Positions 1,816 to 20,814 of a stretch of DNA of 24,000 nt are shown here, one piece after another. Numbering within the stretch: the stretch's first letter is position 1; the number at the start of each line of letters is the position of its first letter. Under the pieces are notes generated by a model. It was not told the origin of the DNA and did no database searches. It was given only the letters and a program-made list of their open reading frames with translations. Source of the stretch: Pontiellaceae bacterium B1224 (GTDB lineage: Bacteria; Verrucomicrobiota; Kiritimatiellia; Kiritimatiellales; Pontiellaceae); NCBI GenBank assembly GCA_029432815.1, contig JAROBA010000002.1:161770-185769 (forward strand), in the 5' to 3' direction. Both the position numbers and the translations under genes were made by a program.

Positions 1816-1847
1816 CGAACACTCCCCAGTATTGGCATAGTGTTAGC

Positions 1848-1875
1848 AGATTAGCAGGATGCGAATGTTTTTCAA
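1848..1875 (-). promoter_or_regulatory. Possible sigma-70-type promoter for plsY (TTGAAA-N16-TAATCT on the minus strand)
   Basis: tttcaa at 1870-1875 is the reverse complement of TTGAAA, and agatta at 1848-1853 is the reverse complement of TAATCT, with a 16-nt spacer. It lies in the 111-nt gap between the flavoprotein stop (1927) and the plsY start (1815). The only support is the hexamer match. Confidence 0.3.
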
Positions 1876-1926
1876 CTTCAATTGCGTCCCTTGGAAAATG
1901 GACAAACTGTTCCGAAGGTCGTGGAA

Positions 1927-3543: not shown

Positions 3544-3553
3544 TGCTCAGGAG

Positions 3554-4744: not shown

Positions 4745-4756
4745 ACCTACTACCCC

Positions 4757-5956
4757 TTAAAATGAAACCGAGTATGTCATACCTATGAGGTTGGAAGCAA
4801 TATCATAAGTACCCGGATATACAGGGTTGGTACTGGATCGATCTGCGTAGACAGTATGGGAATATGAAAGATCCACTGTGTGGCCCCCAAACGTATACCC
4901 CAGCCCCAAACCGAAGATATTCCGGTCAGTATCGGGCAGAATCGGTGTGATGGAGGAATCGGGGATCGGGCTTTCAATAAACGAATATCCTGCACGAACA
5001 ACCCACCCTTCTGCAAATTGCCAGCTTCCGCCAATTGCCGCCGTAATGGTATCCTCCCAATTATTGACGAGCTCAAAAGTTCCCAAGCCAGTGACCGTCG
5101 CTGTCTGCACATCATTGACCGACCACTCGATCCATTCAATAAGCGCCTCCACCTGAATGTCATCGGTCAGCTGAATGCCATAGCCAGCTCCGAAAATATT
5201 CGGGAAACTGATATCCATTGTCAGGTCACCTTCATATTCAAGATCCACCTGGCTACGATAAGTCAGAGCCAGACGCTGATTATCGGTCACCATCCAAGTC
5301 AGCGCAGCGTTTCCTCCGATGCCCCAGCCGTCACCATCCGCATCGACGTCAACATAGGGGGGAGCGGGGTTAGGAGCCCCTGTGGCCACCAATCCCTTAA
5401 ACCCCAGCTGTGAATAGTAAACGTCCAGGCCAGCTGCCAGAGAGACTGAATCTCCAAGTTTGACCGCTACGGTTGGATTAAAATTGATCACTACCATTTC
5501 GGCATCATATAGAATTGCTGTACCTGCGGGAGGCAGCGGCGCAGGGGGAAAAGGCGCCAACGAAGCGGGATCCCAGGAAACGCCTTGACCATAAGGCGTA
5601 GTGATACCCAAACCCCAGACGATACCTTCCGCGGCGGGCATTGAGTAGTAAAGGTTGGGAAGAACGGCCCATGGATCATCGGAAACGACCTCCCCTGCCT
5701 GCGGATGCGTATAAGTATTTTCCGCTCGCGCAAAAGCAACAGCCACCACAGCGGAAGCATTCGTCTGTAATGCGAGGTTGGCCGGGTTATACGAGATGGC
5801 AGACGCATCGTCGACGAAGATCATGTTGGCCCCGGACTTTGCGATACCCTCCGCAGTCGGCGCCGGATTCCGATAACCATCTGCATGTGCACCACATAAA
5901 GATGCACCAACTATTAGAAAGGTTAAGGTGTTTAACTTTGATTTACTGTATTTCAT
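4757..5956 (-). CDS. FadL/TodX (OMPP1) family outer-membrane channel for hydrophobic compounds
   Basis: 399 aa. The signal peptide MKYSKSKLNTLTFLIVGASLCGAHA is followed by the family-typical N-terminus (GANMIFVDDASAISYNPANLA). The sequence is Gly/aromatic-rich with an alternating beta-strand pattern and ends in a C-terminal Phe (GMTYSVSF). Its stop is 12 nt upstream of the next gene's start. Confidence 0.8.
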   Translation of the reverse strand: MKYSKSKLNTLTFLIVGASLCGAHADGYRNPAPTAEGIAKSGANMIFVDDASAISYNPANLALQTNASAVVAVAFARAENTYTHPQAGEVVSDDPWAVLPNLYYSMPAAEGIVWGLGITTPYGQGVSWDPASLAPFPPAPLPPAGTAILYDAEMVVINFNPTVAVKLGDSVSLAAGLDVYYSQLGFKGLVATGAPNPAPPYVDVDADGDGWGIGGNAALTWMVTDNQRLALTYRSQVDLEYEGDLTMDISFPNIFGAGYGIQLTDDIQVEALIEWIEWSVNDVQTATVTGLGTFELVNNWEDTITAAIGGSWQFAEGWVVRAGYSFIESPIPDSSITPILPDTDRNIFGLGLGYTFGGHTVDLSYSHTVYADRSSTNPVYPGTYDIASNLIGMTYSVSF

Positions 5957-6003
5957 TTATATGTACCCCGCTCAAGAAACCTATTTAAATTTGCCGCGTA
6001 TAT

Positions 6004-6019
6004 TGCAGAATACATGCCA
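6004..6019 (-). promoter_or_regulatory. Sigma-54 (RpoN) -24/-12 promoter directed toward the FadL-family gene
   Basis: The minus strand reads TGGCATGTATTCTGCA, against the consensus TGGCACG-N4-TTGCA. It has the exact GG-N10-GC spacing and resembles nifH-type promoters. The -12 GC lies about 50 nt upstream of the ATG at 5956. Confidence 0.5.
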
Positions 6020-6033
6020 TATGTCACAGATTT

Positions 6034-6045
6034 ATTACGCGTAAT
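6034..6045. promoter_or_regulatory. Perfect 12-bp palindrome ATTACGCGTAAT immediately upstream of the sigma-54 -24 element
   Basis: ATTACGCGTAAT is its own reverse complement. It lies 15 nt from the -24 GG, inside the 385-nt divergent intergenic region. Confidence 0.3.
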
Positions 6046-6341
6046 TGGCGCCAAGCTGCATAACCACAACTTACGAATCCGATACGAACTTCTGCTGCCA
6101 AAGAAACACGGTCCGAATATCTCCATCACGTCGAATAAAATACGCCCTATGGAACTGCCCGGCATAGCTTCAGCATTCTTTGGCCAAAGAAAACTCCTGA
6201 TTTCTTCTGCCGCAAGACAAGGGTGCCAATCTTGACATACCCCTGATTATTCCCTAGTACATTGCCGATGAAAATACATCCGACAACGAGTTCTCTACGT
6301 CTGCGATCTGATATAACGATGCATACCTCCTCTCCCCTCCC

Positions 6342-7811
6342 ATGAGCCAAAGAATGAAAGCTCTGATGGTATACCCCAACCGCTACCGGCCGCATGTAAT
6401 GCCCGTGGGTATAGAATACGTATGCAACTCCCTGCTCCACGCCGGAATTCCATTCGAAGTTGCCGACCTTAACTTTGAGTCTGTAGAAGATGTCTGCAGC
6501 CGGATCATCCAGAATAAGCCGGATTTAGTCGGAATCAGCATACGCAACGTCGATGCCTGCTACCTCCGCCAGAACGAGTTTTTCATCCCGCAAATCCGGG
6601 ATCTTGTGCATCGTATCAAATCGGTCCACTCCTGCCGCGTTGTTCTAGGTGGAGCGGGCTATTCGCTGTTTCCCAGCGAGATTCTGGAGTACACCGGTGC
6701 TGACTTTGGCGTTGCAGGCTTCGGAGAAAAAGCTTTGCCTGAATTGATTTCAGCGCTTGAAGGCGGAAAAGATCTTGCGGGCGTGAACAATCTTGTCTGG
6801 CGCAACGACCAAACGGTCGTCCTCAATCCGCGCAGCAAACTTGGTTATGAAGAGCTGCCCCCCCGCCGGCGAAACATTATGCGCAATCGCGACTATTATC
6901 GTGCCTATGGATTCGGAAACATCGAAGCCCGGCGAGGCTGTCATAAACCTTGCGGATATTGCGCCGAGCCTGAAATTGTCGGAAGAGATGTGCTCACACG
7001 AAGTATCGACCATGTACTGGCCGAGCTCCGCGAACTACGCGAGATGGGCATGTCATTCGTCCATTTTTCCGACAGCGAATTCAATGTTGGCTCCCCAAGA
7101 TTCACCCGCGAACTCTGCAAAGCAATGATTCGCGAAAATCTGGGCCTTCGGTGGAGTGCGTTCATTCATCCTGATCCGCGCTCGCTCTCCCCGGAAATCT
7201 GCAAATTAATGCGGGAAGCAGGATGTGCAGAAGTCGGGCTCTCCGTGGATTCCGGTTCGGATAAAATACTTGCCGGAATGGGTAAACAACATACGGTTGA
7301 TGACTCGGTTGAAGTTAGCCAATGGTTTAAGCAGGCGGGGATCTCGGTTGCACATACCTATCTATTCGGCTGGCCCGGGGAATCCTTGGACACGCTGGCC
7401 GAGACCGTTAACTTCATGCGGCGCACAGAACCCGATTTTAAACTTATTTTTGCAGGAATACGCATTCTCCCCGGCACGCGTATTGCGGACGTGGCATTGC
7501 AACAAGGCCTCGTGCCTGAAGATGCCGACCTTCTTGTACCTGTTTTCGCAAACCCGGAGCAGGTACTGAGCGAGTTTCTCCCCTACCTACGCCGAGAAAC
7601 ACGCGGAATTGAAAATTGCATACTCCCATCAAAGGGCGTGGATTTTTCAAATCTGGTGATGCAGGCAGCTTACCTGCGGGGATACGAGGGAGGCTATGCT
7701 GATTTCATGGACCATATCACCTCTCTCCCCCTTCGTGAAAAAGTTGCAATCGGCTGGGATGCTGCGCAGCGCTTTCTGCTTAAGAAGCAGTTTATCCCTT
7801 CTGCACGCTGA
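6342..7811 (+). CDS. B12-binding-domain radical SAM enzyme (class B rSAM)
   Basis: 489 aa. The N-terminus is Rossmann-like and resembles a B12-binding domain (MKALMVYPNRYRPHVMPVGIEYVCNSLL...KPDLVGISIR). The radical-SAM cluster motif is CHKPCGYC (CX3CX2C) in EARRGCHKPCGYCAEP. An alternative start is the ATG at 6354. No obvious Shine-Dalgarno sequence. Confidence 0.85.
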   Translation: MSQRMKALMVYPNRYRPHVMPVGIEYVCNSLLHAGIPFEVADLNFESVEDVCSRIIQNKPDLVGISIRNVDACYLRQNEFFIPQIRDLVHRIKSVHSCRVVLGGAGYSLFPSEILEYTGADFGVAGFGEKALPELISALEGGKDLAGVNNLVWRNDQTVVLNPRSKLGYEELPPRRRNIMRNRDYYRAYGFGNIEARRGCHKPCGYCAEPEIVGRDVLTRSIDHVLAELRELREMGMSFVHFSDSEFNVGSPRFTRELCKAMIRENLGLRWSAFIHPDPRSLSPEICKLMREAGCAEVGLSVDSGSDKILAGMGKQHTVDDSVEVSQWFKQAGISVAHTYLFGWPGESLDTLAETVNFMRRTEPDFKLIFAGIRILPGTRIADVALQQGLVPEDADLLVPVFANPEQVLSEFLPYLRRETRGIENCILPSKGVDFSNLVMQAAYLRGYEGGYADFMDHITSLPLREKVAIGWDAAQRFLLKKQFIPSAR

Positions 7812-8041
7812 CGCAATCTTCCATAAAGTTTGAGCACCCTTTCGCGTACTGACTTTTAGGGTATCCATGGCAATCCATCGCCAGGAAACGTTGTTCCACA
7901 GCTTCTCTATCTGCAGGAATTCATGCCGCGACAAGCAATTGAATTATCCAATCCAGGATCAGATAGCGAGGATTCTACCGGATAAGATTATACCCACAGG
8001 TTGTGCATTAATTCTTGATATATACAATATATTGATATTTA

Positions 8042-8059
8042 GTGTACAAAATTGTACAC
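8042..8059. promoter_or_regulatory. Operator-like inverted repeat GTGTACA-AAAT-TGTACAC in the AT-rich leader of the ketosynthase operon
   Basis: It has perfect 7-bp arms and a 4-nt spacer (two TGTACA boxes). It lies just downstream of a possible TTGTGC(8001-8006)-N16-TACAAT(8023-8028) promoter and about 100 nt upstream of the likely KS start. Confidence 0.35.
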
Positions 8060-8155
8060 GAATACACTTATAGTGCTATGCGCACTTCATTGCGGTGCTC
8101 ATTAGGTTGCGCACAAAAGGGATACACTAATTATGGGCCAAGGGGAAATGCGCGC

Positions 8156-9385
8156 GTGATCGGTAAAAACAGAGTGGTCATCACTGGGGTTGGAGTGCTC
8201 GCAGCCAATGGCATTGGAAAAGAGGCCTTTTGGAATTCCCTCCTCGCTGGCGAATCCGGGATTGGACCAATTACTTTATTTGATACTTCTGATATACCGC
8301 ATGCTATTGCAGGAGAAGTGACTGATTTTAATCCTGAAACATATATAGAAAAGTCATTCAAACCGAAAAGAATGGCACGCTTTACTCAATTAGCTTTAGC
8401 AGCAACGAATTTAGCTATTGAAGATGCCCATGTTCTGGATTCCCTGAGAACAATAACTGTTCCAATTTGTATGGGAGTCAGCACAAGTGCAACCGAGGTC
8501 ATTGAAACTCAAGTTCTTAGAATTAATGATCGTGGAGTTCGATATGCCAGTCCTCTGACCGCAATCACTTCACTACCACAGGCTGGCGCAGGAACTATTG
8601 CTGCAGTTTTAGGCATCAAGACGGAAACGATGACCGTTTCTACAGGTTGCCCTGCCGGACTAGATGCTATTGCTTTGGCATTTGACTCAATTCGACGAGG
8701 TAAGAGAGATATTGCAATCGCAGGAGGGGCCGATGCTCCTATCACAAAATTAACCATAGCTACATTTGATGCAGCAAACATGATCCCCTCGGCCCACAAA
8801 CACCCGGAAAAAGCTAGTAAGCCTTTTGACCAGAATAGAGATGGAGGGGTCATTGCCGAGGGAGCATGCGTTTTGATACTTGAAAATCTGGATAATGCCC
8901 TTTCCAGAGGAGCCCAACCGCTCTTGGAAATTCTCGGCTACGGCTATGCAGGAGATAATCAAGGACAACCGCCAGGCCATGGATTAAATGACAGCATGTC
9001 TGAGGCTCTCTGCAATGCCGGCATAATGCCTCAGCAAATTGATTACATTTCTGCACATGGCCCAAGTGATATACACTTGGATTATATTGAGACCCTTGCG
9101 ATAAAAACAATATTTGGAGAACATGCCTACAAGCTCGCAGTCAGCTCCATCAAAGGTGTGACGGGCAACCCTTTGGCCGCCGCCGGCCCTATGCAGATAT
9201 CTGCCTGTGCGAAAGCATTCGCAACCGGGATTCTTCCTCCAACGGCAAACTATGAAACTGCAGATCCATCTTGCGATCTGGATTATGTTCCTCAGGCAAG
9301 AGAATCACAAATCGACTTCGCCATGATCAATAATCACGGTTTTGGCGGCAGCAACAGCAGCTTAGTGGTTAAGAGATATAAATGA
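8156..9385 (+). CDS. FabF/KAS-II-like beta-ketoacyl synthase with an atypical Cys-His-Asn active site
   Basis: The track ORF starts at 8042, but I prefer the GTG at 8156 (AAGGGGA 8140-8146 as RBS). That gives MIGKNRVVITGVGVLA, a typical KAS N-terminus. Motifs: active-site Cys in VSTGCPAGLDA (tgc 8648-8650), first His in ISAHGPSD (cat 9056-9058), and Lys plus Asn in SSIKGVTGNPLAAAG (aac 9167-9169) where FabF has GHLLGAAG. The C-terminal motif is NNHGFGGSN. Confidence 0.85.
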   Translation: MIGKNRVVITGVGVLAANGIGKEAFWNSLLAGESGIGPITLFDTSDIPHAIAGEVTDFNPETYIEKSFKPKRMARFTQLALAATNLAIEDAHVLDSLRTITVPICMGVSTSATEVIETQVLRINDRGVRYASPLTAITSLPQAGAGTIAAVLGIKTETMTVSTGCPAGLDAIALAFDSIRRGKRDIAIAGGADAPITKLTIATFDAANMIPSAHKHPEKASKPFDQNRDGGVIAEGACVLILENLDNALSRGAQPLLEILGYGYAGDNQGQPPGHGLNDSMSEALCNAGIMPQQIDYISAHGPSDIHLDYIETLAIKTIFGEHAYKLAVSSIKGVTGNPLAAAGPMQISACAKAFATGILPPTANYETADPSCDLDYVPQARESQIDFAMINNHGFGGSNSSLVVKRYK

Positions 9386-11898
9386 CACTTCTTATAATAG
9401 CCCTAATAAGCACTCAGTTCATCACATTATTTCTGGGTTTGCTCGTTTACTTAAACAACAAGACACGTCTCGTAAATAAGCAGTTCATTATTTTATCAAT
9501 ACACTTAACCACATGGGCTTTCTGTGTTTTGAAAATAATAGAATCCCCGACTTCCGCCTCGGCAAACTTCTGGATTCGAGGGGCCTTCTTCGTGACAGCT
9601 TTCTTTCCAGGTAGCTTCACGTTGATTTTATCGGCTATCAAATTCAGTAATTACACTTGGTCGATGCTGTATAAAAAACTTGCTCCCTATCTGAGCCTTA
9701 ACCTTATCGCTGCCTTATTGACCCTGACGCCATTCTTTATGAATAGCGTAAGCATCTCGCCCCAAATAGCTAATAATATAGCCAGCGTTCCAGAAGCTAC
9801 ATATGGCCCAGGATATTATATTTATGCAGTCTACTTCATCGTAACCTGCCTAATTGCCGGGAAAAAATTCTACCATACGTATAAAGAATCGTCCGGCATC
9901 GAACGTTTCGAACTGCAGTATATTTTATACGGTTTTAGTGCGACTTTCATCATTGGAGCTTTTGCATCCTTAATCCTTCCCATTCTGGCCGGAACAAATA
10001 AAACCAGTCAATTTGGTCCATTAGGCATCATTCTTCTGGATGGAATCGTTGCATACGGTATCACAACAAGGCGTATCTTGGGAATTGCCACCATTCTACA
10101 ACGAATCACAGCCTACATTCTGCTCACGTCGTATTTAATCGGCGTCTATTACATTACATGGCAAGTATCAGCTTTCGCTCTTGGAAGTTTAACTGAGACT
10201 TCAGAAAGGCTGCCCTATCTACTAGCCACTATGGCTGTGGTCTTCTCAATGTTCCCCGTACAAGGCCGCTTTCAGGCTGTTGCGAATAAGCTCATTGCAT
10301 CAAGAACAATGGATGTGCCGGCAACGATGAAGCAAGCCAACTTGATATTTCAGTCAATCACAACAATAGACGCATTGTTAAAACAATACTCAACTTTACT
10401 AGGCAACGCTCTCGAAACAACAGGAGTACACATTTTACTTGCCAACAACAAATCTTCAAATAATTTATATGTTAATTATAATAATATTTCAGATTCTTTA
10501 GCTTTTGATGGCCCCGTATGCCAACTCTTGATCTCTGAGCGAGAGCCCGTCAGCAGAGATACCCTAAAGCGGACACGAGCCACCAAATTAAACAATCTCG
10601 CAGAGCAAAGTCTTTCTGACAGAAATGCCAGTGTCGCCATAGGTGTCTTTGCACAAAATATTTTAAAGGGAGTTGTACTCCTCGACCCTAGACTTGACGG
10701 AAGAATATACGACCGAAATGAGCAGGATGCGCTACAGATGCTTTGTAACCAGTTTTCTGTAGCCCTTGAAAATGCTGATTTATATACAAAAATGCAGGAT
10801 AGTAAGATTCAGAATGAAATCATGCTGGATCAGTTGGTCAGCGGCGTTGTGGTGGCAAACCCTGAAGGTGAAATAACGCTGTTCAATCACGAGGCACAGC
10901 GAATTACAGGAATTGAGGATAAAGAAGCGATCGGTCAGAAAATTACAATCCTGCCCAAAGAAATCTATTTGGCCCTCGAGGTTACTCTCGAAAATAAAAA
11001 CGGCGTTCGCAACATTGACGCCACCTTGTTCCCACAGGAGGATTCTGAAGAGAGTAGAAAAAATATTCGTATGGGCTCGGCGTTCCTTTTCGGACATGAC
11101 GGCAAGCCTATGGGCGCCTTACTCGTGTTCACAGACATTACTGAATTGAAAGGCCTCGAAGAGCAGGTTCGTCGATCTGACCAGCTATCCAGCGTCGGCA
11201 CTCTGGCCGCCGGCATGGCACATGAAATCAAGAACCCGCTGGTCACCATTAAAACCTTCACGCAACTCTTGCCTAAACGATACGAGGATGAAGATTTTCG
11301 CAATGATTTTTCCTCGCTGGTTGCACATGAAGTTAACCGGATTGACGGCATCGTAAATGAGCTGCTTAGTTTCTCCAAACCGGCCAAGCCTCATCTGATA
11401 CCGATGAATATTCAGGAAACCATTGACCAATCCCTCAAGCTGATTCAAGAGCAGTTATCGCAGAAAAACATTACCCTCACTAATAACTGCCGGGCAGCCT
11501 CGACCCATATTTTCGGGGATGCAAAACTACTGTCTCAAGCACTAATCAACCTGAACCTTAATGCCATCGAAGCCATCGGGGAATCCGGCAGTATTACCTT
11601 TGGAACATTGAATTGCGCACACCGTTTTGCCAATGGCGACTCTCCTGGTATAGCAGTAACCCGGAAATGCATCCGGCTCCAGATTTCAGATACCGGGAAA
11701 GGCATTGAACGCTCTGACCTGCAGAAAATATTCGACCCGTTTTTTACCAATAAAAGCGAAGGCACCGGTATGGGGCTTTCTGTCGCACATGGCATTATTT
11801 CGGAGCACCACGGAGTTATTGAGGTTGAAAGCGAACCGGGACGCGGCACCTCATTCTATCTCTATATCCCACTCTTAGAGGAGGGAACTATGTCATGA
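9382..11898 (+). CDS. Membrane sensor histidine kinase: N-terminal multi-TM (about 8-9 helices, 7TM-HK-like) input, GAF-like, PAS, HisKA, HATPase_c
   Basis: 838 aa. Its start overlaps the KS stop (ATGA at 9382-9385). The first ~295 aa contain hydrophobic helices. PAS region: LVSGVVVANPEGEITLFNHEAQRITG. H box: GMAHEIKNPLVTIKTFTQLLP. N box: LNLNAIEA. G1: SDTGKGI. G2: GTGMGLS. Confidence 0.85.
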   Translation: MTLLIIALISTQFITLFLGLLVYLNNKTRLVNKQFIILSIHLTTWAFCVLKIIESPTSASANFWIRGAFFVTAFFPGSFTLILSAIKFSNYTWSMLYKKLAPYLSLNLIAALLTLTPFFMNSVSISPQIANNIASVPEATYGPGYYIYAVYFIVTCLIAGKKFYHTYKESSGIERFELQYILYGFSATFIIGAFASLILPILAGTNKTSQFGPLGIILLDGIVAYGITTRRILGIATILQRITAYILLTSYLIGVYYITWQVSAFALGSLTETSERLPYLLATMAVVFSMFPVQGRFQAVANKLIASRTMDVPATMKQANLIFQSITTIDALLKQYSTLLGNALETTGVHILLANNKSSNNLYVNYNNISDSLAFDGPVCQLLISEREPVSRDTLKRTRATKLNNLAEQSLSDRNASVAIGVFAQNILKGVVLLDPRLDGRIYDRNEQDALQMLCNQFSVALENADLYTKMQDSKIQNEIMLDQLVSGVVVANPEGEITLFNHEAQRITGIEDKEAIGQKITILPKEIYLALEVTLENKNGVRNIDATLFPQEDSEESRKNIRMGSAFLFGHDGKPMGALLVFTDITELKGLEEQVRRSDQLSSVGTLAAGMAHEIKNPLVTIKTFTQLLPKRYEDEDFRNDFSSLVAHEVNRIDGIVNELLSFSKPAKPHLIPMNIQETIDQSLKLIQEQLSQKNITLTNNCRAASTHIFGDAKLLSQALINLNLNAIEAIGESGSITFGTLNCAHRFANGDSPGIAVTRKCIRLQISDTGKGIERSDLQKIFDPFFTNKSEGTGMGLSVAHGIISEHHGVIEVESEPGRGTSFYLYIPLLEEGTMS

Positions 11899-13883
11899 AA
11901 ACCATGCCCTCCTGCCTCCTCTATTCCCGCGATGAAGAACTTGTTTCGCGTTTGATACGCATCACGACGTCAATTTCAGCAATCCATCCCATTGATGAGC
12001 AGAATGATTTAGAGCAATGGTTCCGGCAATTCGGCGATACCGTATTGCTGGCAGACCTGCGGGCACCAAACTGTCTGGATGCTATTGCAGAACTACGCAC
12101 CGAGTACCCTACCTCTATTTTTATTATGTTAGGAGCGGAACGCTCCGACCCCATGCTGGCGGCTCAGTTACTCGATCCATATGCAACCTGCGCCCTTGAA
12201 CCCGACCGTCGTGAATTTCAGGCGCTGGTTAAACAGGCCATTGAATGCCTTCTGCTCCGCCAGAAAAACAGGGTTCTTGAAGATGAACTGGCCGCACTCA
12301 ACGCCCGAAAAGTTGAGCATCGCCCGGAGCCTCGCACCCTATTCTCGGCTCCGTTGCGGAATTTCTCGAAAGCGCAGCGCAACTTCGACAATGTTGAAAT
12401 GTTGTTTGAAAGCGTGGTTGAAGGTTTGGTTGCCACCGCCCGGGTTTCCCGTGCCGGCATCTTTATCCAACCCGACCCCCACTCAGAATACGCCTTCGAA
12501 GCGGGAACACGCTGCTTAGCCGCCACTGAAAAACTAACCCTCCATCCAACAAATCCATTTGTCCGATGGTTGGAAATGAATACCCATCTCATATCGCGCA
12601 AAACGCTCGAAAATATTGTCGCTCCAGACGAGCGCGCCATGCTCAAACAGATGCTGGATTCGCTGGGAGCAGAAATCATTATTCCCCTCTACGCCACGGG
12701 GTGCATCAAAGGCTGGATATTTGTCGGGCAGCGCTCCACGGGAATTCCATTCGATGTCGCAGATCTTGAAGACCTGACCGGACTGGCCGATCACATTTCA
12801 ACCACACTGGAAAAGGCGTTCCAGTATGAAGAAACCGCGTTGCAGAAAGCACTGGCGGAAACGGTGCTCCACTCCATTCCGTTCGGCATCGTTGCGTGCG
12901 ATGAAAATGCGGTTATCCGGTGGTTCAATTCCTCGGCGAACGAAATACTCCAGCCGTCTGAAAGCGTTATAATCGGTGAGCGCGCAGAAATTCTCGGCAG
13001 CCGAATTGCCGACCTTTTCCACCGGGCCCTCGCCAACGATAGCGCATACGATATACGGGACTGGACCGATCCCCGGACCAAGCTCACCGTATCGGCCGAA
13101 ACCCGCTGCCTCACAGATAAGGGCCTGTGCGTGGGCGCCATGATCATGATCCGCGATATTACCGGAGCCAAACTGCTGCAGGAAAAAGAAGATCAGCTTG
13201 AACGTGCTTCCTTCTGGAATGAACTGGCCTCAAGTATGAGCCACGAAATCCGCAATCCGCTTGTGGCGATCAAAACCTTCTCTCAGCTGTTGCCGCAACG
13301 CTACGAAGATCCCGACTTCCGGTCTGAATTCAGCGAACAGGTAACTGCGGAAGTCGATCAGCTCAATCATATCATCGATAAAATCAATGAGTTTGCGAAT
13401 CCGCCTAAGCCGGTTTTCCAACCATTGGATGTTCGCAAACCCATCGAATTTGCCGTTACCCGAATCCAGAACGAGCTCGACCATGACAATCTGAAGATCC
13501 ACCTTTCTGCCGACGATTCCCTGCTCACGATCAACGGCGATGCCTCATCGCTCGAAGAAAGTATCTACCATCTGCTCAAGAATGCCGCGGAAAATCTGGC
13601 CAACAAACCCGGCTCCAGAATAAATGTCACCGTCAAAGGTCGCTCACCGGATAAAGGGACCGGCAACATCTATATCATGATCACGGATAACGGCAGCGGC
13701 ATCCATGAATCCGTTCGGGATAAAGTCTATTCGCCCTTCAGCACCATCAAAGCACGCGGGCTGGGCCTCGGAATACCGATTGCCAAACGCGCGGTCATCG
13801 ATCACAACGGCCAGATCGATATCGATACCAGTTCCGGAGGAACGACCGTATCAATCATTTTGCCCACACTGGAGGCGGAATAA
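11895..13883 (+). CDS. Cytoplasmic sensor histidine kinase: degenerate receiver-like N-domain, coiled coil, GAF, PAS, HisKA, HATPase_c
   Basis: 662 aa. Its start overlaps the upstream stop (ATGA at 11895-11898), with GAGGAGGG about 10 nt upstream. The N-terminal ~120 aa has a REC-like fold pattern (LLYSRDEE, VLLADLRAP), but the positions of the conserved Thr/Ser (IMLGAE) and Lys (ALEPD) are not conserved. H box: SMSHEIRNPLVAIKTFSQLLP. G1: TDNGSGI. G2: GLGLGIP. The kinase core is paralogous to that of the upstream kinase. Confidence 0.85.
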   Translation: MKTMPSCLLYSRDEELVSRLIRITTSISAIHPIDEQNDLEQWFRQFGDTVLLADLRAPNCLDAIAELRTEYPTSIFIMLGAERSDPMLAAQLLDPYATCALEPDRREFQALVKQAIECLLLRQKNRVLEDELAALNARKVEHRPEPRTLFSAPLRNFSKAQRNFDNVEMLFESVVEGLVATARVSRAGIFIQPDPHSEYAFEAGTRCLAATEKLTLHPTNPFVRWLEMNTHLISRKTLENIVAPDERAMLKQMLDSLGAEIIIPLYATGCIKGWIFVGQRSTGIPFDVADLEDLTGLADHISTTLEKAFQYEETALQKALAETVLHSIPFGIVACDENAVIRWFNSSANEILQPSESVIIGERAEILGSRIADLFHRALANDSAYDIRDWTDPRTKLTVSAETRCLTDKGLCVGAMIMIRDITGAKLLQEKEDQLERASFWNELASSMSHEIRNPLVAIKTFSQLLPQRYEDPDFRSEFSEQVTAEVDQLNHIIDKINEFANPPKPVFQPLDVRKPIEFAVTRIQNELDHDNLKIHLSADDSLLTINGDASSLEESIYHLLKNAAENLANKPGSRINVTVKGRSPDKGTGNIYIMITDNGSGIHESVRDKVYSPFSTIKARGLGLGIPIAKRAVIDHNGQIDIDTSSGGTTVSIILPTLEAE

Positions 13884-14092
13884 TGAGCCCCTTACATCAA
13901 TTCCAGTCATTGGAAAAACCGATAAATCTTGAAAAAGAAGTCGGAAAGTTTGAGCGGTCACTGATTCTCGAGGCATTGGAAAAATGCAATGGCGTGCAAA
14001 CCCAGGCCGCACAGCACCTCGGAACCACCCGCCGAATCCTGCGCTACCGTATGGACAAGCTGGGGATCGATCCCCGTTCGGAACGACAGTAA
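13883..14092 (+). CDS. Stand-alone Fis/NtrC-type helix-turn-helix (HTH_8) DNA-binding protein, 69 aa
   Basis: FERSLILEALEKCNGVQTQAAQHLGTTRRILRYRMDKLGI matches the C-terminal DNA-binding domain of NtrC-family activators and Fis. GGAGG at 13871-13875 lies 7 nt upstream of the ATG. The start overlaps the kinase stop (TAATG at 13881-13885). Confidence 0.7.
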   Translation: MSPLHQFQSLEKPINLEKEVGKFERSLILEALEKCNGVQTQAAQHLGTTRRILRYRMDKLGIDPRSERQ

Positions 14093-14121
14093 AAATCATC
14101 CGCGCGAATTAAATCCCCCCC

Positions 14122-14149
14122 TTGTCTAATTCAGTTGATGCTTTAAAGT
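14122..14149 (+). promoter_or_regulatory. Possible sigma-70-type promoter for the UspA-family gene (TTGTCT-N16-TAAAGT)
   Basis: The only support is the hexamer match (14122-14127 and 14144-14149). It lies about 25 nt upstream of the ATG at 14175 (GGAGGA RBS in between). Confidence 0.25.
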
Positions 14150-14174
14150 AACGTTTTAACTCATGGAGGATTGA

Positions 14175-14660
14175 ATGAACAACCTACTCGTTGCGGTGGA
14201 CTTTTCCAAATCCACAGATGCCGTTCTCTCGGAATCCGCTAAACTCGCCACAGCACTCGGTGCGAAACTTTGGATCGTACATGTCACAACGGATGAAACC
14301 CAGAACCTGATGTACGAATCCACACAATACACCGGCTTTGATTTCGATTTCACCCCAATGCCCGGCGATATCGAACTGGCGCGCGACATCACGGCCGAGG
14401 AAATTAAAAGGGAGCATGATCAACTGCTTGGAATGACCGCCAAATTGCGGGAAAGCGGCGTCACCACCCAGGCCCTCATCCTCCAGGGCAACCCGGCGCT
14501 TGCCATCCTTGAAAAAGCCGCCGAACTTAGTGCCGACATGATTATCCTCGGCTCACACGGTCACGGCCTGATGCACAAAGCCCTGCTGGGCAGCGTATCC
14601 GAATCCATTATCCACAAATCTCCCGTAAAGGTATTGATCATACCCTCCCAAAAAGAATAA
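14175..14660 (+). CDS. Universal stress protein (UspA family)
   Basis: 161 aa. It shows the typical Usp pattern: N-terminal LLVAVDFS, LWIVHV, and the C-terminal ATP-binding-type motif MIILGSHGHGLMHKALLGSVSESIIHKSPVKVLII. A GGAGGA RBS precedes the ATG. Confidence 0.85.
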   Translation: MNNLLVAVDFSKSTDAVLSESAKLATALGAKLWIVHVTTDETQNLMYESTQYTGFDFDFTPMPGDIELARDITAEEIKREHDQLLGMTAKLRESGVTTQALILQGNPALAILEKAAELSADMIILGSHGHGLMHKALLGSVSESIIHKSPVKVLIIPSQKE

Positions 14661-14720
14661 ATACCGAAGCGGTCTGAGTTGTCCAAACAGATCATATTAA
14701 GATCGTTCTTTAATTGTTTG

Positions 14721-14750
14721 AATTTGGAACACGCGGCGAAAATGCCGCGT
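14721..14750 (+). terminator. Rho-independent terminator downstream of the UspA-family gene
   Basis: Stem ACGCGGC, loop GAAAAT, stem GCCGCGT (a 7-bp GC-rich stem), followed by TATTTTTTTG. It starts 60 nt after the usp stop and ends 22 nt before the moxR-type ATG. Confidence 0.6.
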
Positions 14751-14771
14751 TATTTTTTTGAAAGGCACACA

Positions 14772-15761
14772 ATGCATGAAGAGATTGTAAAAATGAACGA
14801 ACGCTATCAGGCGGAAAGCGAAGTGCTACAGAAGGTTCGGGACGAAATCGGCAAGGTCATTATCGGCCAGGAAGATCTCATCGAGGCCCTGCTGCTCGCA
14901 CTTCTCTGCAACGGCCACGTGCTGATTGAAGGCATTCCGGGGCTGGCTAAAACGCTGGCAGTCACCACTCTCGCCCAAACCCTGCATGCCGGTTTTAACC
15001 GCATCCAGTTCACACCCGACCTGCTGCCCGGCGATCTGCTTGGCACCATGATGTATAACCCGAAGACCAATGAGTTTACGCCCCACAAAGGCCCGATCTT
15101 CGCTAATATTATTCTGGCCGACGAAATCAACCGCTCGCCCGCCAAGGTGCAGAGTGCACTGCTCGAAGCCATGCAGGAACATCAGGTTTCGATTGGCGAC
15201 GCAACCTATAAGCTTGATGAACCGTTCCTCGTGCTTGCCACCCAGAACCCCGTGGAACAGGAAGGCACATACCATCTACCCGAGGCTCAGGTGGACCGCT
15301 TCATGTTCAAACTCGATGTCGTCTATCCATCCAAGGAAGAGGAACACCGCATCCTTAAACGAATGGGAAAAACCAACGTGGATCTCTCCGTCAACGCCGT
15401 CATGGATATTTCCGATATCAACCGCCTGCGAAAAATGGTCGATGAAGTTTTCATGGATGAAACACTCGAGCACTACATTCTGGACCTCGTGCAGGCCACG
15501 CGCCACCCCTCAAAATACGGAATCGATTGTGCCGGAATGATCCGTTACGGCGCATCGCCCCGCGCCACCATCTTCCTCTCGGTCGCGGCCCGCGGCCGCG
15601 CCATGCTCAGCGGACGCGGCTACGTGGTTCCTCAGGACGTGAAAGATGTTGCGCTCGATGTGCTTCGCCACCGTATTCTCCTCACCTACGAAGCCGCCGC
15701 GGAAGAGAAAAGCTCTAACGATATCTTAAAGCAGATCCTCGACACCGTTGAGGTTCCGTAG
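14772..15761 (+). CDS. MoxR-family AAA+ ATPase
   Basis: Walker A is EGIPGLAKT and Walker B is ILADEINR, followed by LLEAMQE...LATQNP. I chose the start at ATG 14772 (MHEEIVKMNERYQ...). This leaves about 27 aa before KVIIGQ, as in MoxR homologues. The track's upstream extension would read through the terminator hairpin. Confidence 0.9.
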   Translation: MHEEIVKMNERYQAESEVLQKVRDEIGKVIIGQEDLIEALLLALLCNGHVLIEGIPGLAKTLAVTTLAQTLHAGFNRIQFTPDLLPGDLLGTMMYNPKTNEFTPHKGPIFANIILADEINRSPAKVQSALLEAMQEHQVSIGDATYKLDEPFLVLATQNPVEQEGTYHLPEAQVDRFMFKLDVVYPSKEEEHRILKRMGKTNVDLSVNAVMDISDINRLRKMVDEVFMDETLEHYILDLVQATRHPSKYGIDCAGMIRYGASPRATIFLSVAARGRAMLSGRGYVVPQDVKDVALDVLRHRILLTYEAAAEEKSSNDILKQILDTVEVP

Positions 15762-15767
15762 TCAAAC

Positions 15768-15828
15768 GTCGGAAGGTCAAAGGTCGCAAGTCACGGACCT
15801 TCAGACCTTCGACCCTCAGACCTTCGAC
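15768..15828. repeat. Inverted array of tandem 7-8-mers (GGTCNAAG units / their complement GACCTTC) filling the moxR-DUF58 intergenic space
   Basis: The left arm is GTCGGAAG GTCAAAG GTCGCAAG. The right arm is TCACGGACCT TCAGACCT TCGACCC TCAGACCT TCGAC and includes a 13-nt direct repeat TCAGACCTTCGAC (15801-15813 and 15816-15828). GAAGGTC/GACCTTC pairings allow an imperfect long hairpin. The array abuts the ATG at 15829. Confidence 0.65.
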
Positions 15829-16719
15829 ATGAAGAATTCAGCCCACAAAGAACTGCTCAAACGTGTCCGCCAGATCGACATCAAAAGTCGAAAGGTGGTC
15901 ACAGAACTGCTCGGCGGTGAGTACAAAAGCGTATTCAAAGGTCGCGGTATGGAATTTGACGAAGTCCGCGAATATATGCCGGGCGATGAAGTCCGCACCA
16001 TCGACTGGAATGTAACCGCGCGAACGGGAAAGCCCTTTGTTAAACGCTTCATCGAAGAGCGCGAACAGTCGCTCTTTTTCCTCATCGATATGTCCGCCTC
16101 CGGCACCTTCGGATCGACCGCTGCATCCAAAAATGAAATCGCCGCCGAGCTGTGCGGGATTCTGGCCTTCTCCGCCATCAAGAATAACGACAAGGTCGGA
16201 CTCATCATTTTCACCGACGAGGTCGAACTTTTTATCGCACCGGACAAAGGGCAGATCCATGTGCTGCATATCATCCGCGAAATCCTCAGCTTCCAGCCCC
16301 GCAGCAAAGGCACCTGCATTTCATGTGCACTCGAATATCTCGGGAAAATGGTGAAGAATAAGTGCGTCACGTTCCTGATTTCTGATTTTCTGGATTCGGA
16401 ATACGACAAACAACTGAAGCTCGCGGCCATTCACTATGATCTCATCGCCGTAACCATCACCGACCCGCGGGAACTGGAACTGCCGAATGCCGGGCTGGTC
16501 GAACTGGCCGATGCCGAATCCGGCGAACGGATTCTTGTGGACACCGCAAGCGCTGCCGCACGAAAACAATTCAGCACAGCGGCTAAAGCGCGTCGGCTGG
16601 AACTCAAAGACTCGCTTAACCGCCTCAACATCGATCAGATTGATGTGCGCACCGACCGCGACTATGTCCACGACCTGGTCCGCTTCTTCCACAGCCGCGA
16701 CCGGAGGCAATCGCTGTGA
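15829..16719 (+). CDS. DUF58-family protein (vWA-like, MoxR-associated)
   Basis: YKSVFKGRGMEFDEVREYMPGDEVRTIDWNVTARTGKPFVKRFIEERE is the DUF58 signature. A MIDAS-like FLIDMSASG follows. I chose the start at ATG 15829; the track's extension from 15748 translates the repeat and overlaps the moxR-type end. Confidence 0.85.
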   Translation: MKNSAHKELLKRVRQIDIKSRKVVTELLGGEYKSVFKGRGMEFDEVREYMPGDEVRTIDWNVTARTGKPFVKRFIEEREQSLFFLIDMSASGTFGSTAASKNEIAAELCGILAFSAIKNNDKVGLIIFTDEVELFIAPDKGQIHVLHIIREILSFQPRSKGTCISCALEYLGKMVKNKCVTFLISDFLDSEYDKQLKLAAIHYDLIAVTITDPRELELPNAGLVELADAESGERILVDTASAAARKQFSTAAKARRLELKDSLNRLNIDQIDVRTDRDYVHDLVRFFHSRDRRQSL

Positions 16720-17705
16720 GCCGGCACAACAACGTAGGACAGGCTTCCAGCCTGTCAACAGTAGCGCGGGAAACAGGCTGGAAGCCTGTCCTACTTTCCT
16801 GCCTCTTTGTGGCAATCCTCGGTTGTTCAGATAAACAAGATCAGTCGAAATCACTCACCGAACCGGTCTATTCCAAACAATACCGGCAGGATTCAACAAC
16901 CGTCATCGTCACGCTCAGCGAAACCAACATTCCAACCTCTGGAAAAATTCAGCTGATGATCGATGTCCATGCACCGGCCGGCATGGAAGTCATTCTTCCA
17001 GACTCTGGAAACTTTTTGGAGCCGTTCTCAGTGGCCGATGGCTATACCGAACCAGTTCAAACGCTACCTAATGGCAAACAGCTTCATCGCCGCGTTTGGA
17101 TTCTCATCCCCAGCCTGCCCGGTGACCACCGGTTCCAACCACTGGAAATTATGGCCGGTCCGGATTCGTTGAAAACAGATGCCCTCAAGATCCACGTCGA
17201 ATCGCTGCTTCCGCCCGGCATCGACTCTTTTGAAATCAAAGATATTGCCGAACCGGTTGCCCTCCTGCCGGAAGAGGAACAACAACTTCAGCTTATAAAA
17301 ATTCTATCAGGCGGCGTCTGCGCCCTTATATTTTTGGTGCTCGTAATCCGATTAAGCCGCCGGCGCCCCAAACCCGAAAAGGTGCTCAGTCCGCATGAAA
17401 CCGCATGGCTGACTCTGGAGAATCTGCCGGAGGATGAACTGGAAAAAATCCAGATTCTGCACTCCCTGCTGCTGCATTTTATCGAAGCTGTTTTGAATAT
17501 TCCAACAACGGGAAAAACACTGGACGAGATTCTTCCAAAACTGCCGAAGGCCACTCTACTCGGCCAACGGTATTCATTGGAAAAATATTTAAACACCAGT
17601 GAGCAGACCCGCTTTTCCAATAAAGTTCCGCCTGGATTTTCAGAAGAACTCGAACAATATGTCCGGAAATTTATTCAGCAAAATCCGGAGGTCAAATGCG
17701 CCTAG
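16716..17705 (+). CDS. Membrane-anchored / lipoprotein-like protein at the position of the DUF4381-type gene of Bat operons
   Basis: 329 aa. The GTG start overlaps the DUF58 stop (GTGA). It has a lipobox-like VAILGC|SDKQ, a beta-rich N-terminal domain, and an internal TM helix (ILSGGVCALIFLVLVIRL) followed by SRRRPKPEKVLSPHETAWLTLENL, typical of the small TM protein between DUF58 and BatA. The N-terminal 26 codons are encoded by the palindromic repeat, so the true start is uncertain. Confidence 0.65.
   Translation: MSRHNNVGQASSLSTVARETGWKPVLLSCLFVAILGCSDKQDQSKSLTEPVYSKQYRQDSTTVIVTLSETNIPTSGKIQLMIDVHAPAGMEVILPDSGNFLEPFSVADGYTEPVQTLPNGKQLHRRVWILIPSLPGDHRFQPLEIMAGPDSLKTDALKIHVESLLPPGIDSFEIKDIAEPVALLPEEEQQLQLIKILSGGVCALIFLVLVIRLSRRRPKPEKVLSPHETAWLTLENLPEDELEKIQILHSLLLHFIEAVLNIPTTGKTLDEILPKLPKATLLGQRYSLEKYLNTSEQTRFSNKVPPGFSEELEQYVRKFIQQNPEVKCA
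16734..16794. repeat. Perfect 22-bp inverted repeat (17-nt spacer); each arm is itself a 7-bp-stem mini-hairpin
   Basis: GTAGGACAGGCTTCCAGCCTGT (16734-16755) and ACAGGCTGGAAGCCTGTCCTAC (16773-16794) are exact reverse complements. Within each arm, ACAGGCT/AGCCTGT can pair. The element lies 15 nt downstream of the GTG start at 16716. Confidence 0.8.
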
Positions 17706-20813: not shown

Positions 20814-20814
20814 A

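Follow-up and report, generated by a model that had tools for sequence, protein, structure and literature searches.

Why should a ketosynthase of the FabF family be encoded head to tail with sensor histidine kinases? The question is raised by a locus in a 24,000-nucleotide (nt) stretch of the genome of Pontiellaceae bacterium B1224, a member of the Kiritimatiellota (contig JAROBA010000002.1, forward-strand positions 161,770 to 185,769). This whole stretch is called the window below, and coordinates refer to it unless another locus is named. Four genes follow one another on its plus strand, encoding a ketosynthase (KS)-like protein of 409 amino acids (aa; 8156–9385), a polytopic histidine kinase of 838 aa (HK1; 9382–11898), a cytoplasmic histidine kinase of 662 aa (HK2; 11895–13883) and a 69-aa protein with a Fis-type helix-turn-helix (HTH) of the HTH_8 family (13883–14092). 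Read from its GTG start at 8156, the KS-like protein is identical to an NCBI protein of this organism. A first-pass annotation had proposed that the KS makes or remodels a lipid-like molecule, that the adjacent kinase senses it, and that the small HTH protein carries the output. The answer that we put forward is that the KS-like protein makes or tailors a ligand read by HK1, the two being a matched specificity pair; judged from sequence comparison, we hold this tentatively, at somewhat less than an even chance.

A ketosynthase-kinase unit conserved in three phyla

The linkage between the KS and the kinases is real, ancient and near-obligate. The gene order is kept in relatives from Kiritimatiellota, Lentisphaerota and Verrucomicrobiota. 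We read 12 genomic contexts reached through homologues of the KS or the HTH protein, among them those of Kiritimatiellales metagenome-assembled genomes (MAGs), a Lentisphaerae MAG and several Verrucomicrobia, and in all 12 the KS gene lies beside HK1 and HK2. KS homologues at 44–76% identity share a common core, consisting of a kinase with a receiver (REC) domain, usually a FadL-type channel, and then KS, HK1 and HK2.

The first-pass annotation had suggested a search for KS genes followed closely by a polytopic kinase, and we ran this neighbourhood check from the kinase side, using the N-terminal sensor part of HK1 as the sole query against metagenome contigs. Eighty loci were returned, of which 3 were cut at the contig end. 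A KS-like gene lies immediately upstream on the same strand in 76 of the 77 evaluable loci. The sole HK1-type kinase without a KS (locus L087, 1417–3885; L numbers are our own labels) has 1395 nt of sequence available upstream, and HK2 is missing downstream of it too. A scan of a genome collection with a KS alignment gave another 80 loci, of which 5 belong to the module (L007, L022, L038, L039 and L049) and the other 75 are canonical FabF loci, used below as the control set. The majority of the loci are metagenome contigs; L167 is from the cultured Pontiella desulfatans and L168 from the complete genome of strain S94.

The polytopic input of HK1 was borne out by hydropathy, which gave about 8–9 transmembrane (TM) segments in residues 1–295. 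Its domains are a HisKA_7TM-like sensor (29.6 bits; cutoff 28.6), a weak GAF, PAS, HisKA and HATPase_c. Clustered at 50% identity, the sensor family has 333 representatives at E ≤ 1e-10; its full-length members are mostly about 810–845 aa long.

The open reading frames (ORFs) are chained as first described, by ATGA at 9382–9385, ATGA at 11895–11898 and TAATG at 13881–13885, which we confirmed on the sequence. Across loci the KS and HK1 frames overlap in 71 of 86 cases and the HK1 and HK2 frames in 65 of 66, counted with the start codon nearest the upstream stop in each locus, a choice that favours small spacers. The 4-nt overlap class alone accounts for 43 loci at the KS/HK1 junction and 62 at the HK1/HK2 junction, far more than the roughly 5% of loci in which a start codon would be expected at any single position; the coupling exceeds chance. 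Over the whole data set KS, HK1 and HK2 are inherited together, their distances correlating with r of 0.86–0.96.

The unit is larger than the chain of KS, HK1, HK2 and HTH. Its core includes a divergently transcribed REC-HisKA-HATPase hybrid kinase (REC-kinase; 3554–4744, minus strand), found in 40 of the 47 module loci of at least 9 kb. In Kiritimatiellota a FadL/TodX-family outer-membrane channel for hydrophobic compounds is added (4757–5956, minus strand; PF03349, E 2.8e-45), which is found in 12 of these 47. P. desulfatans and strain S94 share the exact layout of the window, including a 70-aa HTH protein and a universal stress protein (Usp), with the exception of a B12-binding radical SAM gene. 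In the part of the literature that was covered, a ketosynthase-type protein coupled to histidine kinases is nowhere described.

Such tight linkage also bears on the main rival interpretation, in which the KS is a protein co-sensor: descended from FabF, it would bind acyl groups or form an acyl-enzyme, dock on HK1 (or HK2) as a subunit and inform the kinase network about the acyl-thioester or fatty-acid pool. We consider this rather unlikely, yet several observations speak for it. Near-obligate co-occurrence (76/77) and conserved start/stop overlaps are typical of stoichiometric partners, HK1-type receptors almost never occur as solos, and the three proteins have been inherited vertically over three phyla with the correlated distances given above.

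An exchangeable cassette of KS body and HK1 sensor

The body of the KS and the membrane sensor of HK1 co-diversify as an exchangeable, sharply bounded cassette. In the window this hypervariable input cassette spans 8336–10640 (plus strand), from about KS codon 61 to about HK1 codon 420, as seen in identity profiles. Compared with P. desulfatans and strain S94, the window has 87–90% identity in the REC-kinase, 77–80% in HK2, 76–80% in the 69-aa HTH protein and, against S94 only, 85% in MoxR. The KS is only 47–48% identical and FadL 48%; FadL stays at 48–53% among relatives whose REC-kinases are 87–90% identical, and in Pontiella it belongs to the hypervariable segment. Within HK1 the change is abrupt, with 29–32% identity in the TM sensor and 38–42% in the GAF domain, followed by 76% in the PAS domain and 81–83% in the kinase core. 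Profiles along the proteins against the same two genomes gave a matching picture, with 30–53% over the KS body and 18–45% over the HK1 sensor and GAF, against 63–93% over the HK1 PAS and kinase core, 58–93% over HK2 and 72–96% over the REC-kinase.

The KS types are at odds with the background in which they occur. The KS of P. desulfatans and that of strain S94 are only 44% identical to each other, and the KS of the window is nearer to those of organisms from which the window is further removed in every other protein (L085, 72%; L001, 64%; L086, 61%). The variation is not spread evenly over the protein, since the first 60 residues are 68–80% identical to the window, residues 1–100 are 56–65% identical within the trio, and residues 101–200 are the most variable at 29–40%. 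A block of low GC content at 7900–11100 (0.41–0.47, against 0.48–0.55 in the flanks) covers the KS and the N-terminal two-thirds of HK1, and thus corresponds roughly to the cassette.

The same pattern is seen in two soil Verrucomicrobia loci, L161 and L152, which stem from different metagenomes. Their nucleotide sequences are 95–99% identical over most of 17 kb, and identity falls to 52–71% over a variable block of 1.8 kb that begins near KS codon 60 and ends near HK1 residue 245. The same variable block is seen in L153 and L099. The intergenic region upstream of KS lies outside the block and is conserved. The block edges appear at the most conserved motifs, namely the KS N-terminus and, by approximate coordinates, the sensor motif AYGI(A/T/S)T(R/H)(R/K)I, which is where homologous exchange would be expected. 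No precursor peptide gene of the agrD or comX type is present in the variable block, and the KS stop overlaps the HK1 start.

Distances over 52 loci agree with these profiles. Among the 64 pairs with an HK1 kinase-core distance below 0.10, the mean distance is 0.06 for the kinase core, 0.07 for KS residues 1–60, 0.14 for the KS body and 0.25 for the HK1 sensor, and the distances of KS body and sensor correlate with r of 0.93, compared with 0.6 for their correlation with the core; over all 1326 pairs the partial correlation of KS body and sensor is 0.51. Related sequences enter these figures repeatedly, and the figures are descriptive rather than tests, which lowers their weight in favour of a matched pair; the block profiles are the direct evidence.

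Exchange of the cassette between near-identical backgrounds implies that the KS-like protein and the sensor of HK1 have to fit one another, and the simplest reason for such matching would be that one makes or tailors what the other recognises. By analogy with known systems, co-diversification of this kind is what one would expect if a ligand-maker and its receptor were matched. A ligand that is membrane-soluble and transported would fit, because the variable region of HK1 is largely membrane-embedded, FadL co-varies in Pontiella and the block holds no peptide gene.

If the KS were instead a co-sensor, the co-variation within the cassette would reflect a co-evolving protein-protein interface, and co-variation of two proteins can indeed arise in this way. 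However, sensing of a universal metabolite gives no reason for bounded cassettes that are 30–50% apart in genomes otherwise 95–99% identical. Moreover, the variable part of HK1 is mainly membrane-embedded whereas the KS has no TM segment, and the presence of FadL in the same variable segment in Pontiella points to a transported ligand.

A remodelled FabF-type active site that retains its cysteine

The KS-like protein has the two-domain thiolase fold (PF00109 and PF02801) and is FabF-derived. FabF provides its best NCBIfam and PDB matches, although the protein fails the fabF equivalog model TIGR03150 (381.2 against 493.75 bits) and also NF005589 (364.7 against 387 bits). In a neighbour-joining tree (no bootstrap) the kinase-linked KS proteins form one clade nested in canonical FabF, with those of L039 and L049 at its base.

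A change of a catalytic histidine to asparagine, noted in the first-pass annotation, is real: TGH in Bacillus subtilis FabF aligns to TGN in the KS, and asparagine is found in 120 of the 120 best homologues. In the window the KS keeps Cys165, His301 and Lys333, has Asn338 in place of FabF His340 and HGPSD in place of HGTST, and its gating loop 2 is three residues shorter; in Escherichia coli numbering, Lys65 is replaced by Phe and Arg206 by Asn. We compared 123 module KS proteins with the 75 canonical FabF proteins in this numbering (window Cys165 being Cys163), taking the roles of the catalytic triad, of gating loops 1 and 2 and of the residues for malonyl-acyl carrier protein (ACP) decarboxylation, as well as the AcpP interface residues Lys65/Arg68/Lys69/Thr270 and Arg127/Lys128/Arg206, from PMC7138838.

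Some of the compared positions are kept and others are replaced. Cys163 (123/123), Asp311 and Glu314 are invariant in the module KS and invariant or nearly so in canonical FabF, Lys335 is kept in 122/123 (canonical 75/75) and Asp265 in 121/123 (canonical 74/75). By contrast, position 340 is Asn in 121/123 (His in 75/75 canonical), position 305 is Pro in 119/123 (Thr in 74/75), position 307 is His or Asp (Thr in 75/75), and position 303 is Tyr in 68 and His in 54 of the 123 (His in 75/75). The segment from His268 to Thr270 is deleted in 121–122 of 123, where canonical FabF has His268 in 75/75 and Thr270 in 63/75. Position 229 is Gly in 122/123 instead of Phe (73/75), and the gate position 400 is Leu, Ile, Phe or Met instead of Phe (73/75). 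At the ACP interface, position 65 is hydrophobic rather than Lys or Arg and position 206 is Gly in 100/123 rather than Lys or Arg (60/75). Half of the ACP-docking basic residues are lost.

The replacement residues are themselves conserved and covary as two sets, HGPSD...H and YGP(S/G)H...R. Covarying, nearly fixed replacements speak for a working KS pocket rather than decay. We accordingly rejected the idea of a dead, drifting pseudo-enzyme, with Asn340, Pro305, His/Asp307, Arg/His398 and Gly229 all nearly fixed. Because decarboxylation and gating residues are lost and half of the docking basics are gone, the KS appears from its sequence not to be an ordinary condensing enzyme. Transfer of an acyl group to the cysteine, the first half-reaction, is plausibly still possible on these residues, whereas canonical malonyl-ACP decarboxylation and condensation cannot be assumed. 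Acyl transfer and non-decarboxylative condensation on the retained cysteine would both be possible chemistries. The family carries no annotation beyond 'beta-ketoacyl-ACP synthase family protein', and metabolic reconstructions can easily take its genes for ones of fatty-acid synthesis.

In the basal L039 and L049 all of the canonical residues are present (Cys-His-Lys-His, HGTST). Their loci have a variant layout, encoded on one strand (7371–17876 in L039), with a polytopic kinase, KS, HK2, a sigma54 regulator, FadL and the REC-kinase. Judging by the tree position and residues, this variant may represent the ancestral state with an active enzyme. A full triad in the same type of operon would also fit a gradual conversion from enzyme to sensor, and an invariant Cys163 combined with loss of second-half-reaction residues in several ways would suit a co-sensor protein that is loaded without turnover. 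The partial loss of ACP-docking residues, on the other hand, counts against a co-sensor.

The absence of a fab neighbour, also remarked on in the first-pass annotation, was confirmed: tblastn found no AcpP, FabG or FabD in the window, and Pfam and NCBIfam scans of the neighbours within 1–15761 show no other fab gene. AcpP is missing near the KS in all 9 module loci tested and in the window, whereas 47 of the 75 canonical FabF loci have it as a neighbour; the canonical Verrucomicrobia loci L047, L063 and L075 carry fabG-acpP-fabF. A homologue search seeded with canonical Verrucomicrobia FabF for a housekeeping fabF of Pontiellaceae returned only Opitutales-type proteins.

These neighbourhoods matter for a third interpretation, according to which the KS is a chain-length-factor (CLF)-like partner that forms a heterodimer with the housekeeping FabF or another KS and alters its product. 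PDB entry 9s5h, which may represent the anammox amxFabF2/amxFabFmut heterodimer, is among the sequence matches of the KS. It is known that FabF homologues with a mutated triad act as CLF-like subunits, including in an organism of the Planctomycetes-Verrucomicrobia-Chlamydiae (PVC) group (bioRxiv 10.64898/2026.05.19.726425). However, each locus has one KS with no partner KS or ACP nearby, CLFs and amxFabFmut lack the cysteine that is invariant in the module KS, and neither the kinase linkage nor the co-variation with the sensor would be explained. We regard a CLF-like role as very improbable.

Several points weigh against the KS as the maker of the HK1 ligand. The ACP-docking residues Lys65, Arg206 and Thr270 are lost, and the unit encodes no acyl-activating enzyme or carrier and no export function. 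Both catalytic histidine positions vary by lineage (340 as Asn, Ser, Cys or Ile; 303 as Tyr or Asn), Lys335 can be Arg, and one alternative lineage set reads Cys-Asn-Arg-His; such variation between lineages is unusual for an enzyme of fixed chemistry. Receptor solos, which are common for true quorum-sensing receptors, are almost absent, with only L087 found. In addition, the anammox FabF preprint cited above concludes that His replacements of this kind would severely hinder catalysis (bioRxiv 10.64898/2026.05.19.726425).

Signal relay, output and comparison with known systems

HK1, HK2 and the REC-kinase all match HisKA and HATPase_c, and the H-box motifs HEIKNP and HEIRNP are present in the translations. 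The best named match of both HK1 and HK2 is AtoS, at 305 and 198 bits, below the cutoff. HK2 has zero TM segments, in keeping with the cytoplasmic location first assigned to it, and contains PAS, HisKA, HATPase_c and a weak GAF. Its N-terminus had been called a pseudo-receiver, and this label is moderately supported rather than proven. Pfam detected no receiver in this region. In profile-profile comparison it matched the module receiver domains with a probability of 87% (E 3.9e-6), with the phospho-acceptor Asp aligned and the acidic (DD) pair, Thr and Lys lost. An AlphaFold2 model of low confidence (predicted local distance difference test score 58) has a (beta-alpha)5 pattern, and nearly all of its best Foldseek matches are receiver domains, although weak (E ~2e-3). 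Taken together, the model and profiles make 'pseudo-receiver' a reasonable label. The receiver of the REC-kinase is intact (D16, D17, D59 and K109).

The fourth protein of the chain is, as first described, a tiny protein of DNA-binding type, consisting of 69 aa with HTH_8 only (50 bits). Its best named match is the C-terminus of AtoC, below the equivalog cutoff, and it is 60% identical to residues 138–192 of the 202-aa regulator of L001 and 59% identical to the C-terminus of the sigma54 regulator of L086. The gene after HK2 encodes a REC-AAA(sigma54)-HTH_8 regulator in L022 and L086, a protein with REC and sigma54 AAA domains in which HTH_8 was not detected in L039, and a REC-HTH_8 protein in L001 and L007; in L085 there is none. 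To judge from these matches, the 69-aa protein is a receiver-less descendant, the C-terminal remnant, of the NtrC-type regulator of the module. Proteins of about 70 aa form a family of 84 clusters, mostly of 64–80 aa and with 50–87% identity (most above 60%), which is conserved throughout Pontiellaceae and has members in P. agarivorans, P. desulfatans, P. sulfatireligans and strain S94. In both contexts read, P. desulfatans and S94, the gene has the same position as in the window. A decaying pseudogene was rejected on the grounds of this conserved family and of the shared position in two cultured Pontiella-group genomes. Lacking a receiver, the protein cannot accept a phosphoryl group, and direct phospho-output through it, as envisaged at first, is not possible.

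A receiver-less PAS-sigma54 AAA-HTH_8 activator is encoded downstream of the unit in L167 (11932–13268) and L001 (13141–14481), a few genes on, after Usp and a BATS-type radical SAM gene; it is not in the window. In P. desulfatans the HTH of this activator appears as an ORF of its own, 38 aa long. Where the module regulator is truncated, this activator could, from its domains, serve the sigma54-like promoter of FadL.

That promoter candidate is a −24/−12 site of sigma54 type, TGGCATGTATTCTGCA, which reads from 6019 to 6004 on the minus strand, 48 nt upstream of FadL and oriented towards it; a match of similar quality occurs by chance inside the radical SAM gene. Comparable sites are located 53–107 nt upstream of FadL in L002, L085, L086, L089 and L096, and they are absent in four loci whose regulator lacks an AAA domain, a correlation between site and AAA domain that is suggestive at the sequence level. 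A 70-aa ORF at 5953–6165 (minus strand) overlaps the FadL upstream region and this site; it has no family match and is probably not a gene. Upstream of KS there are two operator-like palindromes (8025–8058). The first is CAATATATTG at 8025–8034. The second, proposed in the first-pass annotation at 8042–8059, is real: TGTACA-N4-TGTACA at 8043–8058, of the TGT-N10-ACA form, occurs once in the 24 kb against 0.10 expected. The upstream block that holds both is alignable across Kiritimatiellales. In L001, L002, L086, L093, L167 and L168, relatives whose KS is only 44–64% identical, palindrome 1 (−107 to −134) and palindrome 2 (−76 to −113) keep comparable offsets from the start of KS. Scans for sigma70 promoters and terminators gave results no better than shuffled sequences, and an Rfam search of the window gave zero matches.

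The soil Verrucomicrobia-type loci have cis elements unlike the Kiritimatiellales palindromes. In L003, L004, L038 and about 40 metagenome loci, TGTGAATAA is seen 100–225 nt upstream of KS, often as a pair of direct copies at a spacing of 18 or 21 nt, and in L003 and L004 a sigma54-like TGGCGCGCAAG(C/A)TGCA comes before it. Past the REC-kinase, at the position that FadL has in Kiritimatiellota, loci of this type encode a protein of about 740–800 aa (for example L003 4732–8054 and L004 5384–8439, both minus strand), with no family match other than a faint Lant_dehydr_N, and a ParA/MinD-like ATPase. The two are conserved in 25–26 of the 47 larger loci.

Other genes around the unit are confined to narrower groups. 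A flavoprotein of the p-cresol methylhydroxylase/vanillyl-alcohol oxidase type (1927–3543, minus strand; E 1.9e-60 to 4-cresol dehydrogenase 1wve) comes next after FadL and the REC-kinase, downstream of them and on their strand; it has the same position in L001, L085, L167 and L168 and is also conserved in L089. It is a lineage-specific accessory of Pontiella-related Kiritimatiellales loci and L089. Its position hints that the locus may handle hydrophobic compounds resembling 4-alkylphenols. An assignment as alkyl-DHAP synthase, which would point to ether lipids, was rejected, the match to AGPS being only 6e-5 compared with 1e-60 to p-cresol methylhydroxylase and vanillyl-alcohol oxidases. On the same strand past the flavoprotein is a PlsY-like gene (1225–1815; 133 bits against the TIGR00023 cutoff of 137, with a Pfam G3P_acyltransf match), PlsY being the acyl-phosphate:glycerol-3-phosphate acyltransferase. 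On the other side, Usp (14175–14660, plus strand; E 4.5e-27) stands directly downstream of the unit in the Pontiella-related L001, L167 and L168. It is followed in the window by a MoxR AAA ATPase and a series of same-strand ORFs (14679–23402, plus strand), whose syntenic genes in S94 are annotated as DUF58, BatA/VWA, TPR and BatD, an operon like that for Bacteroides aerotolerance.

The B12-binding radical SAM gene between FadL and KS (6342–7811, plus strand; Pfam B12-binding and Radical_SAM), which the first-pass annotation had considered as a possible participant, is not in the conserved unit. It is an insertion specific to the lineage of the window, absent at this position in L001, L085, L167 and L168, the closest relatives read. 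Its best match is TIGR04072, 'lipid biosynthesis B12-binding/radical SAM', at 275 bits against a cutoff of 360, and a homologue is present in 0 of the 80 metagenome loci; membership in either the unit or TIGR04072 was rejected. Other B12-radical SAM genes, only distantly related, occur near the module in L002, L086 and L022.

Lipid-related neighbours such as PlsY, FadL and the nearby B12-radical SAM genes in some loci, together with the coupling of the KS to kinases, one of which has a polytopic membrane domain, might suggest that the KS is regulated cargo, that is, a lipid-remodelling enzyme under kinase control with no role in signal input, as in membrane homeostasis of the DesK/DesR-Des type. 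E. coli FabF is known for the thermal control of fatty-acid composition, which can be counted in its favour. However, a cargo gene is not expected to co-diversify with a sensor domain (r of 0.93) or to swap with it as a block, the residues for chain elongation are missing, and the lipid neighbours are conserved in narrow lineages only. We consider a cargo role quite improbable.

We therefore return to the KS-like protein as ligand-maker and HK1 as receptor. Of the scheme first proposed, the linkage, the gene order and the co-diversification of KS and sensor speak for a synthase and its sensor, while canonical condensing chemistry, direct output through the HTH protein and the involvement of the radical SAM gene do not stand. 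In the model that we propose, the window would be one allele of a conserved signalling locus of PVC bacteria. Through acyl-enzyme chemistry that we infer from the retained cysteine, the FabF-derived KS would make or tailor a lipid-like ligand from an acyl thioester. FadL would let this ligand across the outer membrane in Kiritimatiellota, and the membrane-embedded input domain of HK1 would read it. Enzyme and sensor would be exchanged and would diversify together in one cassette, in the manner of agr or comQXP pherotypes. The signal would be integrated by HK1, HK2 with its degenerate receiver and the divergent REC-kinase, with phosphotransfer in a direction that we can only infer. In relatives, the output would run via the NtrC-type regulator, whose targets would probably be the sigma54 promoter before the FadL operon and the palindromes before KS. 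In Pontiellaceae, including the window, where the regulator is reduced to a 70-aa HTH, the phospho-output would lie elsewhere, and the HTH protein would be at most a constitutive or indirectly controlled DNA binder. The broader proposal, a lipid-signal system between cells (or for self-sensing) of Verrucomicrobiota, Kiritimatiellota and Lentisphaerota that uses cysteine-based KS chemistry and in which the cassettes define 'pherotypes', is possible but in our view doubtful.

The closest parallels are the peptide systems ComQXPA of Bacillus and agr of Staphylococcus. ComP is polytopic, and agr is organised as specificity groups. The enzyme and the kinase of comQXP are highly polymorphic against a background of nearly identical housekeeping genes (PMC4408185). 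As in these systems, the enzyme gene of the module immediately precedes that of a polytopic membrane histidine kinase, hypervariability affects the enzyme and the N-terminal sensor while kinase core, regulator and flanks are conserved, and the allele types are incongruent with the strain background. Unlike them, the module has no peptide precursor gene and its variable block starts inside KS, so any signal would be non-peptide; its enzyme is derived from FabF and is neither an isoprenyl transferase nor a peptidase; and it combines three kinases with a sigma54-type output in diderm PVC hosts. Polymorphism of a cassette like this one is nowhere described for a ketosynthase-type protein in the literature covered.

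A lipid-like signal synthase beside a multi-TM sensor kinase is the arrangement of CqsA/CqsS and LqsA/LqsS (alpha-hydroxyketones) and of RpfF/RpfC (diffusible signal factor), and the module shares it insofar as its KS is a putative synthase. CqsA and LqsA, however, are dependent on pyridoxal phosphate and RpfF is a crotonase, with folds unrelated to that of the KS, and we know of no start/stop coupling or cassette polymorphism in these systems. PpyS (photopyrones) and DarB (dialkylresorcinols) are thiolase-superfamily enzymes that form lipid-derived signals by non-standard condensation. In contrast to the module KS, which is derived from KAS II (beta-ketoacyl-ACP synthase II), they are of the FabH type (KAS III) with Cys-His-Asn and an extra base, and their receptors, PluR and PauR, are LuxR solos and not histidine kinases.

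Compared with FabF/KAS II itself, the module KS shares the two-domain thiolase fold and Cys163, Lys335, Asp311, Glu314 and Asp265, whereas His340, Thr305, Thr307, His268, Thr270 and often His303 are replaced or deleted. Like KS/CLF and the anammox amxFabF2/amxFabFmut, it is a FabF homologue with a mutated triad in a new role, but CLF-type subunits lack the cysteine and occur beside an intact KS and a dedicated ACP. On the kinase side, the HisKA/HATPase_c cores with their H-boxes and the REC-AAA(sigma54)-HTH_8 regulators of relatives resemble NtrB/NtrC (AtoS/AtoC); the window differs in having no regulator with a receiver, in falling short of the equivalog cutoffs and in a relay split over three proteins. 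The tod system (TodS/TodT/TodX) has a FadL/TodX channel beside a multi-kinase relay that contains a receiver, as has the module. Neither NtrB/NtrC nor the tod system has a KS-like partner.

If true, the broader proposal of a lipid-signal system with pherotypes would give the first lipid-based equivalent of the agr and comQXP specificity groups and, to our knowledge, among the first quorum-sensing-type systems described for Verrucomicrobiota, Kiritimatiellota and Lentisphaerota. Verrucomicrobiota rank among the most abundant bacteria of soils, and Kiritimatiellota degrade sulfated polysaccharides in the sea; little has been described, as far as we know, on mutual or lipid-environment sensing in these two phyla. 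The locus is carried by the cultured P. desulfatans, P. agarivorans, P. sulfatireligans and strain S94, which makes it directly testable, with the natural allele types as built-in specificity controls and a single conserved cysteine that permits a clean catalytic-null mutant. Either outcome would be new, whether a ketosynthase scaffold repurposed for pherotype-like signal synthesis or a pseudo-enzyme of ketosynthase descent that acts as the subunit by which a kinase senses acyl groups. The general kind of system, in which an enzyme is paired with a sensor kinase, specificity types exist and a phosphorelay provides the output, is known; new here are its components, its phyla and the lipid chemistry that they imply.

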